NCBI GenBank assembly: GCA_017409785.1
Contig: JAFQSD010000004.1
Span: 48,663 to 112,662 of the forward strand
Reading direction: 5' to 3'
DNA: 64,000 nucleotides
From: Bacilli bacterium
GTDB taxonomy: Bacteria; Bacillota_I; Bacilli_A; RF39; UBA660
A program made the translations under genes and the position numbers. Positions 49,356 to 60,345 of the stretch are shown piece by piece; the first letter of the stretch is position 1; every line of letters starts with the position of its first letter. The notes below the pieces were generated by a model. The model was not told the origin of the DNA, made no database searches, and was given only the letters and a program-made list of their open reading frames with translations.

Positions 49356-50045
49356 ATGTTAATTGCTGAAAATATAAAACAACATTTAGCAGAAGCAACA
49401 ATATCAGGAAGAAGATATTATGAAGAACATCCTGAATGTCGTATTCATCATGAAGTTGCAGAATTAATCCCTGATGACATAGATGTTGATAATCTAATCA
49501 TTGCTTATAAAATATGTTTAGATAATTATGAAAAACATCAAGGAAACGTTTTACCATTTATTGCAACTATTCCTCAGTATGTTCGTAAAGGTACTACGCA
49601 AGAATTTGCTAAAGAATTTAGAAAAAAATATATTACAGATATTCTTGGACTACCACCACAACCAGAACTAGAAACAGACTATGGCTATGTAGAAACTGAA
49701 CCATATGTAATAGATATTTCTAATAAAAATAAATATGCCGTACTAGCAGCACTATATAACTATTCAACACCTTATGGTATGGGATTTGCTCAATATGATC
49801 CATATGCATGGGATGAAGAAATTGGTAAACTTGCATTTGAAAAATTTGGTGAAGTATTAGCTGACGGTTCTATTTTCTTTGGCTGGGTTCAAGGGCGACT
49901 AATGCGCTGTAAGTTTAAAGATAATTTAGTTTATGTTGAAGCATACAATCGTGAAAACATTGATGGACTAGGTCAATTAGCAGTAAGTTCTGTACCTAAT
50001 CTAAATCAAAAAGAAAAGCCTATTCAAAAAGTAAAAAAAGATTAA
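49356..50045 (+). CDS. hypothetical protein (orphan), translationally coupled to the 976-aa gene
   Basis: 229 aa. RBS aggagggg lies inside the end of the upstream gene, with 1 nt between its stop and this start. Conserved-looking block: YAVLAALYNYSTPYGMGFAQYDPYAW...FGWVQGRLMRCKF...YNRENIDGLG. Confidence 0.55.
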   Translation: MLIAENIKQHLAEATISGRRYYEEHPECRIHHEVAELIPDDIDVDNLIIAYKICLDNYEKHQGNVLPFIATIPQYVRKGTTQEFAKEFRKKYITDILGLPPQPELETDYGYVETEPYVIDISNKNKYAVLAALYNYSTPYGMGFAQYDPYAWDEEIGKLAFEKFGEVLADGSIFFGWVQGRLMRCKFKDNLVYVEAYNRENIDGLGQLAVSSVPNLNQKEKPIQKVKKD

Positions 50046-50075
50046 TAATATGATATACTAAAAATGGTGAATAAA

Positions 50076-50702
50076 ATGATTAATCAAGACATCAAAAAAT
50101 ATATAGAAAAAAATATCTATCCAGAATATCAAAAAAATGATAGTGGTCATAACATAGACCACATTAAATATGTTTTAGAAAGAAGTTTAAAGTTTGCTAA
50201 AACAGTTCCAGATATTAATCTAGACATGGTATATGTAATTGCAGCATTTCATGATATTGGTCATCATATAGATGCTAAAAACCATGAACAAGTATCTTCA
50301 GAAATACTGGAAAAAGATGAATTCATCAAAGATTATTTTACAAAAGATGAACTTAAAACAATGGTAGAAGCAGTAGTTGATCACAGAGCTAGTTTAGAGT
50401 ATATTCCACGTTCAATTTATGGAAAAATAGTCTCATCAGCAGATAGAAATACTGATATAGATATTCCTCTAAAACGTACATATTCTTATCGTTTAGAGCA
50501 TTTTCCAAATGCTACATTAGATGAAATCATTGAAGAATCACGTCAACATATTATTGATAAGTTTGGTTCAAATGGCTATGCCAAAGATAAAATATATTTT
50601 GAGGATGAAGATTATAATAATTTCTTAAAAGAAGTAGAATTATTCGCAGAAGATAAAGAACTTTTTAGAAAAAGATTTATTGAAGTAAATAATATTAAAT
50701 AA
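50076..50702 (+). CDS. HD-domain phosphohydrolase (YpgQ/YedJ-like)
   Basis: SGHNIDHIKYV, AAFHDIGH, SADR. TGATATACT at 50051-50059 favours the MINQD start at 50076 over 50064. Confidence 0.7.
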   Translation: MINQDIKKYIEKNIYPEYQKNDSGHNIDHIKYVLERSLKFAKTVPDINLDMVYVIAAFHDIGHHIDAKNHEQVSSEILEKDEFIKDYFTKDELKTMVEAVVDHRASLEYIPRSIYGKIVSSADRNTDIDIPLKRTYSYRLEHFPNATLDEIIEESRQHIIDKFGSNGYAKDKIYFEDEDYNNFLKEVELFAEDKELFRKRFIEVNNIK

Positions 50703-50718
50703 CAAAGTAGGTGATACA

Positions 50719-51318
50719 ATGTCCAAAATAAGTAATGTCCTAACTTTTATGCAATACTTAAGTACAGGTAAAAAATATAGTATTCAAGAATTATCTGAAA
50801 AATTAGAAGTATCACCACGTATGATTAGAGTCTATAAAGAAGAACTAGAAAAAGCAGGAATTTATGTAGATACAATAATGGGTCCATATGGAGGATATGT
50901 CTTAAATCAATCTATTAGAATGCCTGTTAGAAAATTTAAAAAGAAAGATTATGAACTACTAGAAAAATATATCAGTGAAGAAAAAGATTTAGATAGAAAA
51001 GAAAAATTAATTCTATTAAAAGATAAGATTCAAGGAGTATATGCAGGTAGTAAACAAGAAGCACGTGAGTTAAATCTAAAAGATGAAACTCAAAGTAAAT
51101 ATAATTTACTAACACGTGCCATCAAAGAAAGAAAAAAAGTAAAAATATTATATTATTCTTATAATAAAGGAGAAAATGAAAGAGTCATATGTCCAGCAGA
51201 AATGTTTTTATTTCAAGATGGTTGGTATGTCGCAGCATTCTGTCTTGTAAAGAATGATATCCGTCATTTTGAATTAAAAAGAATAATAAAATATGAATTA
51301 TTAAATGAAACTTTTTAA
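50719..51318 (+). CDS. HTH plus WYL domain transcriptional regulator
   Basis: N-terminal HTH YSIQELSEKLEVSPRMIRVYKEELEKAGIYV. The C-terminal WYL-like segment is KVKILYYSYNKGENERVICPAEMFLFQDGWYVAAFC. Confidence 0.7.
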   Translation: MSKISNVLTFMQYLSTGKKYSIQELSEKLEVSPRMIRVYKEELEKAGIYVDTIMGPYGGYVLNQSIRMPVRKFKKKDYELLEKYISEEKDLDRKEKLILLKDKIQGVYAGSKQEARELNLKDETQSKYNLLTRAIKERKKVKILYYSYNKGENERVICPAEMFLFQDGWYVAAFCLVKNDIRHFELKRIIKYELLNETF

Positions 51319-51328
51319 GTAGACTAAA

Positions 51329-51375
51329 TACTTCCTACTCAAGTGCTACTATGTACTTGAAAGGAAGTGTTTTTT
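51329..51375 (+). terminator. intrinsic terminator whose 3' arm contains the only RBS-like sequence for the next gene
   Basis: acttcct..tcaagt-loop-acttga..aggaagt, then gT7. The next ATG is at 51377. Confidence 0.6.
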
Positions 51376-51376
51376 T

Positions 51377-52300
51377 ATGAAACCAAACATGCATGATAAT
51401 TTTAAATTACTTGAAGAAAGAGTATTAGACTCTTTAGAAAAAACAGACTTAGAAAGGATTAAATATCATCTAGAAAGAATAAAAACACCAACGATAACAA
51501 CAGGAGTAGGTGGTTCAAGTGTAGCAAGTAATTTTGCAGCTAAAGTACTAAGTACCAAGAATGGTATAATAGCAGAACACCAAGAACCACGTGATATGTT
51601 ATATAAGCCACTACAAGGATATGACAATGTATTAGCTTGTAGTTATGGTGGAAGAAACTATGGAGTAAAAACATCATTTGCCAATGATTTAAATAAGTAC
51701 TTACTATCAAGAAATATATCTGATAATGAAGGAGTAAATAATTTAACTTATGATGCTTCTTTACCGGATGAAGATAGTTTTATCTCATTAGCCGCAACAC
51801 TTATGCCAATGAGTGTAATGCTAGCATATTATAATGATAATGATATTTCAGTAATAAAAGAAATTTTAGAAACAGCAAGAAAATATAATGTTAATATAGA
51901 TAAAGTATATGAAATATTAACTGGCTATGACACATCAACTGCATCAATCTATTTAGATTCAACTTTGGCTGAAGCGGGATTAGCATCACCTGTGGTTCAT
52001 GATAAATATTCAATGTGTCATGGTAGAACAACTCTCTCATACCATCATGACCACTCCTTAATTCATCTAGATAGAGGTACCGAATTAGATAAACTATATA
52101 AAGAGGAACTACCACAATATTACAACGGAGTAATAACTCTTGAGGGTAAGTTTGATGATCCAATAGTGGATGACTTTTATCTAACATATCAAGCAATGCT
52201 TTTATCAAAAGCAATGGCAGAATCTAAGGGTAGAGACCTATCTAGAATGGCATATTCCCCAGCAGTAAAAAAACTATATCGCTATAGTGGCGAAATGTAG
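51377..52300 (+). CDS. hypothetical protein with SIS-fold-like N-region
   Basis: TGVGGSSVASNFAAKVLSTKNGIIAEH...YDNVLACSYGGRN resembles the SIS G-x-G-x-S...A and S-x-S-G pattern. The assignment is weak. Confidence 0.45.
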   Translation: MKPNMHDNFKLLEERVLDSLEKTDLERIKYHLERIKTPTITTGVGGSSVASNFAAKVLSTKNGIIAEHQEPRDMLYKPLQGYDNVLACSYGGRNYGVKTSFANDLNKYLLSRNISDNEGVNNLTYDASLPDEDSFISLAATLMPMSVMLAYYNDNDISVIKEILETARKYNVNIDKVYEILTGYDTSTASIYLDSTLAEAGLASPVVHDKYSMCHGRTTLSYHHDHSLIHLDRGTELDKLYKEELPQYYNGVITLEGKFDDPIVDDFYLTYQAMLLSKAMAESKGRDLSRMAYSPAVKKLYRYSGEM

Positions 52301-52305
52301 TAAAA

Positions 52306-52334
52306 TTGACAATTATACTAAACTATGTTATAAT
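52306..52334 (+). promoter_or_regulatory. near-consensus sigma-A promoter of the ABC exporter leader
   Basis: TTGACA (52306-52311), a 17-nt spacer, and TGTTATAAT (52326-52334). Confidence 0.75.
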
Positions 52335-52402
52335 CTAGCCGTAGTAAATCAATTCGACCATTCGCGTTTTACTACCAGACAAACCTAGAGTTTGAAGGAA
52401 TA

Positions 52403-52447
52403 ATGAAGAGCCTTAAGAATCTCCTCATGAATGGCAAAAAACCGTAA
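52403..52447 (+). CDS. candidate 14-codon leader peptide (MKSLKNLLMNGKKP)
   Basis: gaagga lies 3-4 nt upstream of the ATG. The ORF lies in the 5' arm of the downstream terminator and ends Lys-Lys-Pro-stop. Confidence 0.4.
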   Translation: MKSLKNLLMNGKKP

Positions 52448-52497
52448 GCAAAATTATGGTTGTTTTTGCTAATTCATGAAAGGAGGTTCTTTTTTTG
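52417..52497 (+). terminator. leader terminator/attenuator upstream of the ABC exporter
   Basis: Long hairpin: gaatctcctcatgaat (52417-52432) pairs with attcatgaaaggaggttc (52472-52489). The inner stem is gcaaaaaacc/ggttgtttttgc. T8 follows. Confidence 0.65.
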
Positions 52498-52534
52498 ATA
52501 CAACCAGACAATTATATAAAAAGGAGAGAAGTAT

Positions 52535-54220
52535 ATGAAGTTATTTAAAGAAGTAATAAAAAACAATTTAAAATTAATGATAGTTTATTTTATACTTGGA
52601 ATAACATTTACATTCTTGGGGCTATATGCCACAAATTATTTTCAAGTAATAATTGACTCATTTGGAACAAATGAAATAACACTAGGAATGATAATATTTT
52701 ATGGAATAGTTTTATTAATAAATGCCATCATTGGATACATTGACAACTATCCAGACAGAGTTTTATTTAACAAACTTTATTTAGAATTCAAAAAGCAATC
52801 TATGAAAAAACTAAAGACAATAGATTATCAAGAATATCAAAAAATAGGAACAGGGAGATTATCACAACAAGTAGAAGAGGGTGCAACAGCAGCAAGAGAT
52901 GCAATCTATTTCTTCTGGTTAAAGTTACTAAGGGAACTTTTACCAGGGGCTATTATAAGTTTATTCTTCATAGGTAGAATTGAGTTCAAAGTGTTATTAA
53001 TAGTTTTAATTGGATACATATTTGTAATCATCCTAACAAACATTGTTCTAAAGGTTCTATACAATTTAAAAGAAAAAATAAACATCAATCAAGAGTTATT
53101 AAATAAACATTTAATTCGTGGTTTCATGGAATTAGTAGTTTTTAGAACTAACAAAAAGTATGATGTTGAATTAGAAAAAATAGATCTAGAAATAACTGAC
53201 ATTACTAAAGGAAAAACTAAAATAAAATTAGTTCATGAAATATTTTTCACAGCTTTTGAAATTCTAGTTACAATAATCAAAATAATAATGTTAGTATATG
53301 CAGTTATTTCAAAAAATCTGACAATAGGTGAAATAGTAGTTTTAATAACTCTATTAGGCAAAGCCTATGAACCAATTGCAATATTCAATGTTGAATACAT
53401 AGACTACAAATTAAACATAGTATCATTAAAACGCTATTTAGAATTCTTAGATTTACCAGATGTTTCAAATATGTATGAAGGAAAAACATTAAAAAATATT
53501 TCTGGTAATGTAGTCTTAAATGATGTAACATTTGCCTACAAAGAAAAACAAGTGCTAGAAAATATTAATCTTGAAATAAAAGAAAATTCAACTGTCGCAT
53601 TTGTTGGTGAAACAGGAAGTGGAAAGTCAACAATCATAAAATTAATTGCTGGACTAATAAAACCTCAATCAGGAAATGTATTAATAGATAATAAAGATCT
53701 AACTAAAATAAAATTAGATTCATACTATGATTACTTATCTTATTTATCACAAGATTCACCTATCTTTGACGGAACGCTAAAAGAAAACATTGTTTTTGAC
53801 AAAAATGTATCAGATGAGAAAATAATAGAAGTATTAAAACTTGTTGAATTAGAAAAGTTTTATTCAAAATTAAAAAATGGTTTAGAGACTGAACTAGGAG
53901 AAAAAGGAATCTTAATTTCTGGAGGAGAACGTCAAAGAATAGCTCTTGCGAGACTTTTCTTTGATGATTCAAAAATAATAATTTTAGATGAAGCAACATC
54001 AGCAATGGACAACATAACAGAAGAAAAAGTAATGAATTCAATCATGAAAAAACTAGAAAATAAAACTTTCATCATAATTGCTCATCGACTAAACACAATA
54101 AGGAATGTAGATAAAATCTTTGTTCTAAGAAATGGCTCAATAACTGACACAGGGACATACAAATCATTACAAAAAAATAGTGAATATTTCGAAGAACTAT
54201 CATTGAAAAAAGTAAACTAA
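52535..54220 (+). CDS. ABC exporter, fused permease-ATPase half-transporter (multidrug/peptide exporter type)
   Basis: Six N-terminal TM helices, Walker A GETGSGKST, signature LSGGERQR and Walker B IIILDEATS. Confidence 0.9.
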   Translation: MKLFKEVIKNNLKLMIVYFILGITFTFLGLYATNYFQVIIDSFGTNEITLGMIIFYGIVLLINAIIGYIDNYPDRVLFNKLYLEFKKQSMKKLKTIDYQEYQKIGTGRLSQQVEEGATAARDAIYFFWLKLLRELLPGAIISLFFIGRIEFKVLLIVLIGYIFVIILTNIVLKVLYNLKEKININQELLNKHLIRGFMELVVFRTNKKYDVELEKIDLEITDITKGKTKIKLVHEIFFTAFEILVTIIKIIMLVYAVISKNLTIGEIVVLITLLGKAYEPIAIFNVEYIDYKLNIVSLKRYLEFLDLPDVSNMYEGKTLKNISGNVVLNDVTFAYKEKQVLENINLEIKENSTVAFVGETGSGKSTIIKLIAGLIKPQSGNVLIDNKDLTKIKLDSYYDYLSYLSQDSPIFDGTLKENIVFDKNVSDEKIIEVLKLVELEKFYSKLKNGLETELGEKGILISGGERQRIALARLFFDDSKIIILDEATSAMDNITEEKVMNSIMKKLENKTFIIIAHRLNTIRNVDKIFVLRNGSITDTGTYKSLQKNSEYFEELSLKKVN

Positions 54221-54258
54221 TATGTTACTATTAAATTGCAAGGAAACTTGTACAAAAA

Positions 54259-54292
54259 AAGGATACATTTGAGTGCCTCAAACGTATTCCTT
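54259..54292 (-). terminator. minus-strand-oriented terminator (serves the convergent sORF transcript)
   Basis: On the minus strand: aaggaatacgtttgag-gca-ctcaaatgtatcctt followed by T7. Confidence 0.55.
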
Positions 54293-54309
54293 TCTTGGAA
54301 CATAAGGAT

Positions 54310-54343
54310 GAGTCTAACTTATGTTAGACTCTGTTTTTATTTT
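54310..54343 (+). terminator. plus-strand terminator of the ABC exporter gene
   Basis: gagtctaac-ttat-gttagactc followed by tgTTTTTaTTTT. Confidence 0.65.
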
Positions 54344-54414
54344 AGAAGTAATAATATCACAACTAATAATAGAAGGAGTATTATGGAGTATAAAGAACAT
54401 TCTCTTTTACTCAT
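54337..54414 (-). CDS. 25-aa hydrophobic peptide, type I toxin-like (MSKRECSLYSIILLLLLVVILLLLK)
   Basis: Not in the ORF track because it is too short. Near-perfect SD AAAGGAGGTG lies 6 nt upstream of the ATG. The peptide is a single TM helix with a charged N-terminus and a C-terminal Lys. Confidence 0.45.
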   Translation of the reverse strand: MSKRECSLYSIILLLLLVVILLLLK

Positions 54415-54680
54415 AATAATCACCTCCTTTCTTGAATTTCTCCAAGAAAGAAAACATTCCTAAATGTATCCGAAAACGTATGTTATCAACCTCAAAATGA
54501 AATGACAAACTGCCAAATATTAAAATTAAGAGAATTATGAATATAGAAAAATCAGTCATATTAGGCTGATTTTTTCTTTCTATAAAAAAACTATCTTTAA
54601 ATAACTAAAATATTAATAAACTAATATTCTAAAATAAACAATTATGATATAATGTAGTCTACTAAGAAAGAGGTGTTCAT

Positions 54681-55625
54681 ATGAAAGTGTTATTATTCAC
54701 TCACAAAAATGATATTGATGGTATGGGAAATGCCATATTAGCTCAACTTGCTTTTGATGAAGTTAATTATGTTTTATGCGGAACATTTGACTTAACAGAT
54801 TTAGTTGAAAAATACTATAAAGATGGAAGTATTTATGATTACGATCGAGTATATGTTACAGATTTATGTTTACAAGATCCAATTCTTTCAAAGATAGCTC
54901 AAGATGAAAAAATATCTAAAAAAATTCAAGTATTTGATCATCACAAAACGTTTGCAGAACCAAAGTATACAAATCATCCATTCATAACAGTGCAATTAGA
55001 AAATGAAAAAGGTCTATGTTGTGGAACAAGTATTTTCTATAATCACTTATTACAAGAAGGACTACTTGCCTCAGACAACCAAGCAATTGCCGAATTTGTT
55101 GAATTAACAAGACAACATGATACATGGGAATGGAGAAATATATATAATAATGAAAAGTCTCGTGAATTATCAATTCTATTTGATGCTCTAGGTTGTGATG
55201 GCTATATTTCATTAATGACTGAAAAATTAAGAAATAAAGAAACAAAAGTTTTTGATTATGATTCTATGGAAAGAACTTTAATTGATAATCGTAAACAGCA
55301 AATAGCTGAGAAATGTAAATTCTATGCAGATAGAATTCATTATAGAGAAATATTAGGAATGAAAGCAGGAATTGTTTTTATAACATATGAATACCGAAAT
55401 GAACTTGCTGAATATTTTAGAGAAAATAAATTTGATATGGACTTTACAATGATGATTGCTTTTGATCCAGGTGTAGTAGCATATAGAAGTGTTAAAGAAG
55501 GAGTACATGTTAGACCAGTAGCTGAACTATTTGGTGGTAAAGGTCATGAAAAAGCAGCTACTAATCCAATAACTGATGAAATGTTAACTGAAATATTAAA
55601 AATATTAACAGAAGAAAAGAAATAA
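54681..55625 (+). CDS. DHH family phosphoesterase
   Basis: FTHKNDIDGMGNA (DxD), FDHHKT (DHH), GGKGHEKAA (the GGGH-like motif of DHHA1). Extended -10 TGATATAAT lies at about 54642. Confidence 0.75.
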   Translation: MKVLLFTHKNDIDGMGNAILAQLAFDEVNYVLCGTFDLTDLVEKYYKDGSIYDYDRVYVTDLCLQDPILSKIAQDEKISKKIQVFDHHKTFAEPKYTNHPFITVQLENEKGLCCGTSIFYNHLLQEGLLASDNQAIAEFVELTRQHDTWEWRNIYNNEKSRELSILFDALGCDGYISLMTEKLRNKETKVFDYDSMERTLIDNRKQQIAEKCKFYADRIHYREILGMKAGIVFITYEYRNELAEYFRENKFDMDFTMMIAFDPGVVAYRSVKEGVHVRPVAELFGGKGHEKAATNPITDEMLTEILKILTEEKK

Positions 55626-60119: not shown

Positions 60120-60345
60120 GCCAGTTAATTAAAAGACGACTCATTCAAAGTAATTATTTTATAATGTTTTATAGAGAGTTTGTGGTTATGTGGAAACAAA
60201 CAAAAATAAAATAATGAATTACAAGTGATGATTTTAATCGGAGAAGTCCGTTATCAAAATAAGGTAATAAACTATTATTACAAATAAAGGTGGTACCACG
60301 AGCATTTCGTCCTTTTGGATGAAGTGCTCTTTTTATTTTCAAAGG
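60120..60345 (+). promoter_or_regulatory. T-box riboswitch leader (Tyr specifier) for tyrS
   Basis: Promoter TGTTATAAT at about 60107. AGAGAG box (tatagagagtt). Candidate specifier UAC followed by A at 60220-60223. T-box aaataaaGGTGGTACCACGagc at 60283-60304. Terminator gagcatttcgtcc-tttt-ggatgaagtgctc plus a T-run. Confidence 0.85.

Follow-up and report, generated by a model that had tools for sequence, protein, structure and literature searches.

Can a gene of 25 codons be recognized as the toxin gene of a toxin-antitoxin (TA) system of type I from the anatomy of its locus? The question is raised by a short intergenic cassette (54203-54576) in a 64,000-nucleotide stretch of contig JAFQSD010000004.1 from an uncultured gut Bacilli bacterium; this whole stretch is herein called the window, and coordinates given without a locus name refer to it. 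The cassette is flanked by the genes for an ABC exporter and a DHH phosphoesterase, and its minus strand carries a small open reading frame (sORF) for a hydrophobic peptide. The original prediction, made from the letters of the window, was of a type I TA-like locus convergent with the exporter. The sequence features that it lists are all found where it puts them, and they go beyond what chance would supply. Having compared the region with its counterparts in related genomes, we lean, on balance, toward that interpretation: the locus is a candidate new type I TA family in which a predicted antitoxin RNA overlaps the 3' end of the mRNA for a putative toxin.

A 25-Codon Gene Conserved among Related Gut Bacilli

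The sORF, read directly from the sequence, consists of 25 codons and a stop (54414..54337, minus strand; ATG at 54414-54412, TAA at 54339-54337), and its product in the window is MSKRECSLYSIILLLLLVVILLLLK. The peptide is strongly hydrophobic, with a grand average of hydropathy (GRAVY) of 1.79 and 14 hydrophobic residues in the best window of 15. Fozo et al. 2010 used the rule that a candidate peptide is 16-70 residues long with at least 10 of 15 residues hydrophobic (PMC2887945); the sORF product, a small hydrophobic peptide (<70 residues) of 25 residues with one predicted transmembrane (TM) helix, lies within these limits. Leaving aside an artefact of a T-box leader (described below), it is the sole intergenic hydrophobic sORF preceded by a Shine-Dalgarno (SD) sequence within the 64-kb window. 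This extended SD, AGAAAGGAGGTGAT (54419..54432, minus strand, read directly), has its core AAAGGAGGTG 6 nt upstream of the sORF ATG. Over 14 nt AGAAAGGAGGTGAT is complementary to the canonical Firmicute 16S 3' tail; no rRNA was found in the window by an Rfam search of its whole length at the gathering threshold.

Relatives were fetched through the flanking DHH gene and ABC exporter, and the intergenic region was collected from eleven lineages. The window itself is identical to a scaffold of a metagenome assembly (L001). The genomes of the relatives are metagenome-assembled genomes (MAGs) from ruminant and other guts, and their labels are Bacilli bacterium, uncultured Mycoplasma sp. or Candidatus Coprovivens. 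The sORF is conserved with an intact frame in these related uncultured Bacilli. Six distinct intact versions of the peptide occur, that of the window included, and each is exactly 25 codons long: MSKRECSLYSIIILLLLVVILLLLK in L017, MNKRESSLYSIIFLLLLVVILLLLK in L018, MSKREHSLHFIIFLLLLVVIILLLK in L014, MSKRENSLYSIIFLLLLVVIILLLK in L029 and L030, and MTKRENAQFIIILLLFIIILTLLYK in L003_A (the same as in L023-25). The residues M-x-KRE, I11, I12 and the C-terminal K are invariant across the versions, and substitutions in the helix are exchanges among L, I, V and F, i.e., hydrophobic for hydrophobic. The 25-codon length is fixed despite a 40% nucleotide difference between the open reading frames (ORFs) of the window and L003_A and despite indels in both untranslated regions (UTRs). 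Taken together, the fixed length, the hydrophobic exchanges and a ratio of nonsynonymous to synonymous polymorphism (pN/pS) of 0.3-0.6 indicate a gene under moderate purifying selection. The claim that the unannotated sORF is a real gene is thus borne out by its frame, its SD and the constancy of its variants.

Two longer frames that overlap the sORF did not hold up. The 75-residue plus-strand ORF at 54236..54463, already suspected of being spurious, is stopped in L014, L029, L030, L003 and L031. A 50-residue minus-strand ORF at 54407..54559 (beginning MTDFSIFIILLILIFGSLSF), which starts within a distal hairpin and crosses the promoter and 5' UTR of the sORF, lacks an SD, and none of L017, L018 and L014 has a counterpart of it; we judged it spurious as well.

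Predicted Sequestration of the Shine-Dalgarno Sequence

A pattern scan places the predicted promoter of the sORF mRNA at 54480..54508 on the minus strand (TTGTCA, 17 nt, and the extended -10 element TGaTAACAT). In alignments, the pattern TTGnnn-17 nt-TGnTAAYAT is kept in seven of seven intact copies. Between this promoter and the start codon, scanning and folding both identify a hairpin that would sequester the SD, CUUUCUUGGA-GAAA-UUCAAGAAAG (54427..54450, minus strand). Its arms, CTTTCTTGGA (54450-54441) and TTCAAGAAAG (54436-54427), enclose a GAAA loop and form 10 bp over the 5' half of the SD. In the seven intact sequences 100% of the cells in this stem are paired, with GC<->GU swaps at two adjacent pairs; the hairpin postulated from the window is therefore present where it had been placed, and its predicted pairing is conserved in the intact relatives through wobble swaps.

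The mRNA as a whole is predicted to be highly structured. A 220-nt model folds at -75.4 kcal/mol (z = -7.3), and none of 200 shuffled sequences folds as well. In this model the SD is predicted to be closed, which would restrict translation of the sORF. A further helix over the start codon (I7, 54412-54421/54376-54385) was considered and discarded, being only 84% paired and decaying in relatives.

Back-to-Back Terminators and a Predicted Antisense RNA

Around the cassette, a pattern scan found four terminator-like sites against 0.1 expected from shuffles. The two back-to-back terminators of the original prediction are both conserved: a minus-oriented hairpin (54287..54263) followed by a T-run, and a plus-oriented one (54310..54331) likewise followed by a T-run. 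The former, H3 (54254..54290, minus strand, with its U-run; scan and fold), is the predicted intrinsic terminator of the sORF mRNA and has the form GGAAUACGUUUGAG-GCA-CUCAAAUGUAUCC plus U7; across copies its stem is invariant and its loop hypervariable. The latter, H2 (54310..54343, plus strand, with its U-run), was found by scanning and is conserved in relatives; its U-run is the complement of the last Lys codon of the sORF, the stop codon and AAAAC. Four unrelated H2 stems occur across the copies (GAGUCUAAC/GUUAGACUC, GAGUCUAGU/ACUAGACUC, CUGAACC/GGUUCAG and UUUGAACUCAAC/GUUGAGUUUAAG), and in the seven intact sequences four pairs are changed on both sides. The U-run that follows H2 is always on the plus strand and never on the minus strand; H2 is therefore a plus-strand terminator that would halt plus transcripts exactly at the end of the sORF.

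Approximately 80 nt upstream of H2, the scan finds a promoter-like site on the plus strand (TTGAAA, 17 nt, TGtTACTAT; 54203..54231), and the same match is returned in L003 and L014. The hexamers are conserved in all intact lineages (consensus TTGAWA-17-TGtTACKAT), with the 6-9 nt after the -10 element variable. In L003, L014, L029 and L030 the site is non-coding and lies downstream of the exporter's own terminator, so that promoter and H2 delimit a separate unit of ~105 nt. On these two boundaries we predict an antisense small RNA (sRNA) with three hairpins (54238..54343, plus strand) that is fully complementary to the 3' UTR and last codons of the sORF mRNA. The folded model (54238-54345) has an energy of -34.7 kcal/mol (z = -5.2), and nine copies fold into this arrangement. 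That an antisense RNA converges on the 3' end of the sORF is thus a concrete prediction, and a conserved one. Two lineages that have lost the ORF carry, in the extended -10 TG and in the sRNA 5' hairpin, substitutions found in no intact lineage; this is weak evidence, drawn from one clade, that the sRNA promoter and 5' hairpin may be constrained only while the ORF is present.

In the window's own clade the exporter also bears on the cassette. A deletion of ~34 nt took the exporter's terminator hairpin (window 54203-54220 compared with L003 3332-3379), and the exporter ORF ends ...SLKKVN*, inside the predicted sRNA promoter. With this terminator deleted, the exporter 3' UTR must run antisense into the cassette, and the suggestion that it overlaps the 3' end of the sORF accordingly holds for this clade.

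Internal Repeats and Mosaic Conservation

The two ends of the sORF mRNA are complementary to each other. The 5'-terminal motif GGATACATTT (54462..54471, minus strand), near the predicted transcript start, is perfectly complementary over 10 nt (54471-54462) to AAATGTATCC (54270-54261), as found by a repeat finder (inverted repeat I5), and is a near-copy of the 5' arm of the H3 terminator stem. A perfect complement of at least 10 nt between 5' UTR and 3' UTR arose in 44 of 5000 mononucleotide shuffles. A second inverted repeat, I3 (54287-54299 vs. 54441-54453; 13 nt, 92%), is collinear with the 10-nt repeat and was absent from the original prediction; the long-range 5'/3' partners of the mRNA are GGAUACAUUU/AAAUGUAUCC.

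The 3' UTR also carries a copy of the SD region, since a 10-nt direct repeat, TCCTTTCTTG, occurs at both 54288-54297 and 54425-54434 (repeat finder, D2); this repeat, too, was absent from the original prediction. This SD mimic, CCAAGAAAGG (54289..54298, minus strand; D2 and I3), is a perfect partner for the anti-SD CUUUCUUGG and is invariant in all nine copies that retain the 3' module. Through the same direct repeat the predicted sRNA has a 12-13-nt match to the SD region.

Conservation across the cassette is mosaic. Between the window and L003_A, GGATACATTT is 100% identical while the adjoining 5' spacer is 20% identical; the linker and H3 stem stand at 91%, the SD hairpin at 81%, the ORF at 60% and the H2 region at 32%. 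Such a pattern points to constraint at the RNA level.

Insertion and Decay of the Cassette

More distant relatives (L026 and L027) have the same exporter-DHH synteny with a spacer of 49-51 nt that contains one terminator; as these genomes hold an empty site of ~50 nt, the cassette is an insertion. Deletion relics are found in four lineages: L003 (copy B), L031, L028 and L022. L003 has a tandem pair, of which copy A is intact and copy B (L003_B) is a relic in which the promoter, 5' UTR and start codon are lost and the 3' portion of the ORF survives together with both hairpins and the linker. L031 is independently truncated from the 5' side and keeps the last six codons and the 3' module, so that in both L003_B and L031 the antisense module is retained without a translatable ORF. 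In L028 the ORF and the first hairpin are gone, with the deletion junction exactly in the CAAGAAAGGA direct repeat (SD region vs. 3' UTR), and the larger deletion in L022 runs between GGATACATTTG and GGAATACGTTTG. In the lineages examined, an intact ORF is always accompanied by an intact 3' antisense module. Neither the 64-kb window nor the fetched loci contain any other copy of the cassette. Fozo et al. 2010 recognized new type I loci by tandem duplication within an intergenic region, by polymorphism in presence or absence and by similarity that reaches beyond the ORF (PMC2887945), and the locus shows all three.

Relation to Known Type I Systems

The original prediction assigned the peptide to the Fst/TxpA/Ldr class, and this assignment fails. 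The Fst/Ldr superfamily (Fst, Ldr, SprA1, Lpt) is marked by (A)PxxxG(C) in the helix, a Trp after the TM segment and a charged tail (PMC2887945, PMC8309996). The sORF product has no hidden Markov model (HMM) match, no PxxxG motif, no post-TM Trp and no charged C-terminal tail; Pro, Gly and Trp are absent from all six variants. No similarity to TxpA/BsrG/BsrE/YonT, Hok/Gef, Ibs, ShoB, TisB or other catalogued toxin families was detected in Pfam, NCBIfam, PADLOC or PHROGs, and in the PDB the peptide matched only designed Leu-rich channels, through composition and without significance (best E = 0.28). At the RNA level, an Rfam search of 53900-54900 at E<=10 returned noise and no known antitoxin RNA, and at the gathering threshold the whole window yielded only the T-box.

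In architecture, the cassette is like bsrG/SR4, txpA/RatA and yonT/SR6 of Bacillus subtilis as these are portrayed in PMC8309996 and PMC5848175: a gene for a small hydrophobic peptide with the SD sequestered in its mRNA, and a convergent antisense RNA of ~100 nt, here a prediction, that overlaps the 3' end of the toxin mRNA with its terminator-proximal part. SR4 both triggers RNase III cleavage of bsrG mRNA and tightens SD sequestration (PMC8309996; PMC5848175). Unlike these systems, with which it has no sequence relation, the cassette encodes a peptide of 25 rather than 38-59 residues without a polar tail and is not on a prophage; its 3' UTR also contains a mimic of the SD and a stretch complementary to the 5' end of the mRNA.

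Other systems share other parts of the layout. As in par/Fst-RNAII of Enterococcus and sprA1/SprA1AS of Staphylococcus, transcription would be convergent with shared or adjacent terminators, and owing to repeats the antitoxin is complementary not only to the 3' end but also to the translation-initiation region. SprA1AS, the cis-encoded antitoxin of sprA1, pairs with the ribosome-binding site (RBS) (PMC8309996), whereas trans pairing of the predicted sRNA to the SD is not above chance. Like hok/sok, the cassette has an mRNA whose 5' and 3' ends are complementary to each other, through 10 perfectly matched nt and a collinear 13-nt helix, with both partners strictly conserved. In hok, the 5'-3' pairing is part of a stable full-length fold, Sok acts at the 5' end via mok, and trimming of the 3' end activates the mRNA. 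Here, in contrast, the antisense RNA would lie at the 3' end, there is no mok-like overlapping frame, and the 5'-3' pairing would free the SD if the inner helix forms. With Ibs/Sib, ShoB and zor-orz of Escherichia coli the cassette shares a very short, almost purely aliphatic peptide, as well as tandem duplication and between-strain length polymorphism of one intergenic region (PMC2887945); it differs from them in phylum, in the absence of sequence similarity and in antisense geometry, Sib fully overlapping ibs.

A Proposed Mechanism

What the comparison shows is a set of conserved sequence features and one covarying hairpin; from these we infer transcription of both strands, toxicity of the product and a mode of repression. 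In this model, 54203-54576 would be a self-contained, insulated type I TA-like cassette whose insertion is particular to a narrow clade of uncultured gut Bacilli. A ~220-nt mRNA for a 25-residue, single-helix membrane peptide would arise from the minus strand, its exceptionally strong SD held shut by the upstream anti-SD hairpin. The ~105-nt sRNA would be transcribed from the plus strand, initiated by the promoter at 54203-54231 and ended by the terminator at 54310-54343; the read-through 3' UTR of the exporter would, in the window's clade, span the same stretch and likewise be fully complementary to the 3' UTR and last codons of the mRNA. If bsrG/SR4 and txpA/RatA are a guide, the 3'-terminal duplex would mark the mRNA for cleavage by RNase III and keep it in the SD-closed fold.

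A plausible addition to this model involves the SD mimic CCAAGAAAGG in the 3' UTR and the 5'-end partner AAAUGUAUCC: the 5'-3' pairing would draw the anti-SD away from the SD, and the sRNA would block that pairing by occupying the 3' UTR and covering the mimic. We regard as doubtful, and put forward as a conjecture, the full form of this idea, a three-way RNA switch in an undescribed type I TA family. The anti-SD would pair either with the SD (OFF) or with the SD mimic in the 3' UTR (ON), the ON state being aided by a helix between the 5' end and the 3' arm of the terminator; the sRNA, and in some lineages the exporter 3' UTR, would repress through this 3' UTR decoy and not through the RBS. 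If such a switch exists, release of the toxin would be coupled to transcription of the exporter.

Weighing the Toxin-Antitoxin Interpretation

Several observations count against a type I TA system. The peptide has no toxin-family match in Pfam, NCBIfam (E<=1), PADLOC or PHROGs, and its C terminus is a single Lys (YK in L003_A) in place of the cluster of polar, charged or aromatic residues usual in type I toxins; IbsC, ShoB and DinQ are known exceptions to this pattern (PMC8309996). Promoter-like matches are not enriched in the AT-rich DNA of the window (10 found, 8.2 expected from shuffles), so what argues for the promoters is the conservation of their position. H2 could simply serve to end read-through from the exporter, and trans pairing of the predicted sRNA with the 5' UTR and SD is no better than chance (31 of 500 shuffles). 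The ORF has been lost in four of about ten lineages and is thus dispensable. A BLAST search of the cassette against plasmids and phages gave no match, nor did three pattern scans of viral contigs; a metagenome pattern scan returned three loci, only one of them a true relative (L014), the other two (L015 and L016) being chance matches in GC-rich coding DNA. In the collections scanned, the family occurs at a single chromosomal locus and within a single narrow clade.

The long-range pairing adds to these points. In the alignments 98.8% of the cells of the two 5'-3' helices are paired, with invariant sequence and zero compensatory changes; being invariant, they provide no covariation for or against the helices. 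In L018 one A>C change in the 5' motif breaks the 10-nt pairing without compensation. On its 3' side the 10-nt helix uses the 3' arm of the H3 stem and so competes with the terminator hairpin. The minimum free energy (MFE) fold, which does without the 10-nt helix, has -75.7 kcal/mol, compared with -69.4 kcal/mol when that helix is enforced and -68.0 kcal/mol when both are, i.e., 6-8 kcal/mol worse. Of the original proposal that 5'-3' pairing keeps the mRNA translationally inert, the 10-nt complement itself stands, perfect and conserved. The hok-like inert fold does not: it lies outside the MFE structure and goes uncompensated in L018, and we rejected it as the ground state on energy and lack of covariation. 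The inner helix, if it forms, takes the anti-SD off the SD, so that the long-range fold would open translation instead of blocking it, the opposite of the hok analogy.

The main rival, which we consider unlikely but well short of negligible, is that the sORF encodes a non-toxic small membrane protein (e.g., a membrane modulator or accessory subunit) behind a structured leader, with H2 as the terminator of the exporter or of read-through and no dedicated antisense RNA. A sORF that is conserved and framed, the missing toxin-family match, the lack of enrichment of promoter-like sites and a cassette that always stands beside the same exporter, which in the window's clade is without another terminator, all suit such a protein. 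It fits less easily with the retention of H2 and the promoter-like site in L003, L014, L029 and L030, where the exporter has its own terminator, or with the exporter operon being unchanged where the cassette is absent (L026, L027); a 3' UTR conserved above the ORF speaks against it, and a tandem duplicate and antisense-only relics are unexpected for an ordinary accessory protein. We think it improbable that the sORF is untranslated and the region no more than an sRNA gene, or a group of terminators and insulators, between convergent and divergent genes, with the ORF incidental. The dense hairpins, the greater conservation of RNA motifs than of the ORF and the double use of the last codon and stop as the U-tract of H2 speak for such a view; it leaves unexplained a 14-nt SD at ideal spacing and a 25-codon frame held, with the hydrophobicity of its helix, through 40% nucleotide difference and UTR indels, and the empty-site genomes need one terminator in about 50 nt.

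Two further readings were rejected, and to each we give very little credence. One is that the peptide is a secreted hydrophobic signal of the SHP (short hydrophobic peptide)/Rgg or PrgQ kind, which the adjacent ABC transporter would export and a neighboring regulator would sense. SHP precursors are short, with a charged N terminus and a hydrophobic C terminus, and the sORF product resembles them in size and shape; an ABC exporter and a regulator with WYL and helix-turn-helix (HTH) domains are close by. However, Pfam and NCBIfam searches found no Rgg/RRNPP domain in the neighboring proteins, those of 307 and 199 residues included, so there is no regulator of the required kind. These neighbors and the exporter persist in the empty-site genomes, i.e., independently of the cassette; the sORF is convergent with the exporter and not cotranscribed with it, and the exporter has no peptidase domain match. 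The other, equally slight in our estimation, is that the cassette is the remnant of a non-autonomous mobile element, like a miniature inverted-repeat transposable element (MITE), whose inverted repeats are transposition ends. Insertion relative to the empty sites, the internal inverted repeats and a 20-nt, 80% inverted repeat near the cassette edges (I1, 54205-54224 and 54557-54576) would agree with this, but the cassette occupies a single locus with no further copy in the 64-kb window or fetched loci. On inspection, relatives do not share I1, which probably arose by chance in low-complexity sequence; a target-site duplication was not observed, and the internal repeats lie downstream of the conserved promoter and coincide with the SD and terminator elements.

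If the TA interpretation is confirmed, the cassette would represent a new type I toxin family found by anatomy instead of homology. It would do so in a lineage of uncultured, small-genome gut Bacilli whose RNA regulation is little known, and through an ORF of 78 nt that lies below the usual cut-off of gene callers. The intact copies and empty sites, the tandem duplicate, the relics that keep only the antitoxin and a nested pair of ORF deletions at internal repeats form a natural allele series for the study of 3'-overlapping antitoxins, in which the role of the 3' UTR SD mimic in control can be examined. In practical terms its reach would be modest: there are many type I TA systems, the distribution of this one is very narrow, and its hosts are uncultured.

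Cassette Edge and Neighboring Genes

On the side of the DHH gene, the cassette ends in a predicted bidirectional terminator (A-run/hairpin/T-run; 54546..54575, both strands; scan), which would act as an insulator toward that gene. The position of this distal hairpin is kept with different stems (CAG/CTG vs. TAG/CTA) in L014, L017, L018, L020, L022, L029 and L031. In L030 (3500-3706, at the contig end; assembly ERZ27236846) foreign sequence breaks it, which may be the end of an insertion sequence or an assembly break. Inside the sORF there is a weak plus-strand promoter-like match (TTTAGA/TTTAAA-18-AATAAT; window 54341-54370) that recurs at L014 524-553 and L003 3865-3894. This match and the plus-oriented hairpin at 54546-54575 could delimit a second antisense RNA over the start codon, SD and 5' UTR; the conservation of the match may also merely reflect the coding sequence.

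The genes 5' of the cassette form a string on the plus strand (49356-54220) that encodes a 229-residue protein, a 212-residue HD-domain protein, a 199-residue HTH+WYL regulator, a 307-residue protein and the 561-residue ABC exporter. The 199-residue regulator matches the WYL model of PADLOC (E = 1.4e-30); WYL regulators frequently accompany defense systems. The 307-residue protein has no family match in Pfam or NCBIfam. This upstream string is retained in genomes without the cassette.

In one lineage, three genes (~3.7 kb) lie between the cassette remnant and the DHH gene (L022 4187-6686; L019 1-2412, on the same contig; L028 3129-4363). They encode a 232-residue protein, a 615-residue DUF87/TrwB-like ATPase and an AraC/GyrI-like regulator, and the sORF is deleted in these genomes; the block may belong to an integrated element, conjugative or mobile. 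The T-box leader of the window lies at 60127-60317 (plus strand), upstream of the tyrosyl-tRNA synthetase gene (Rfam RF00230, 93.1 bits, gathering score 93). The strand opposite it contains, at 60234-60305, the "hydrophobic sORF" of 21-23 residues mentioned above, which is an artefact of the leader.

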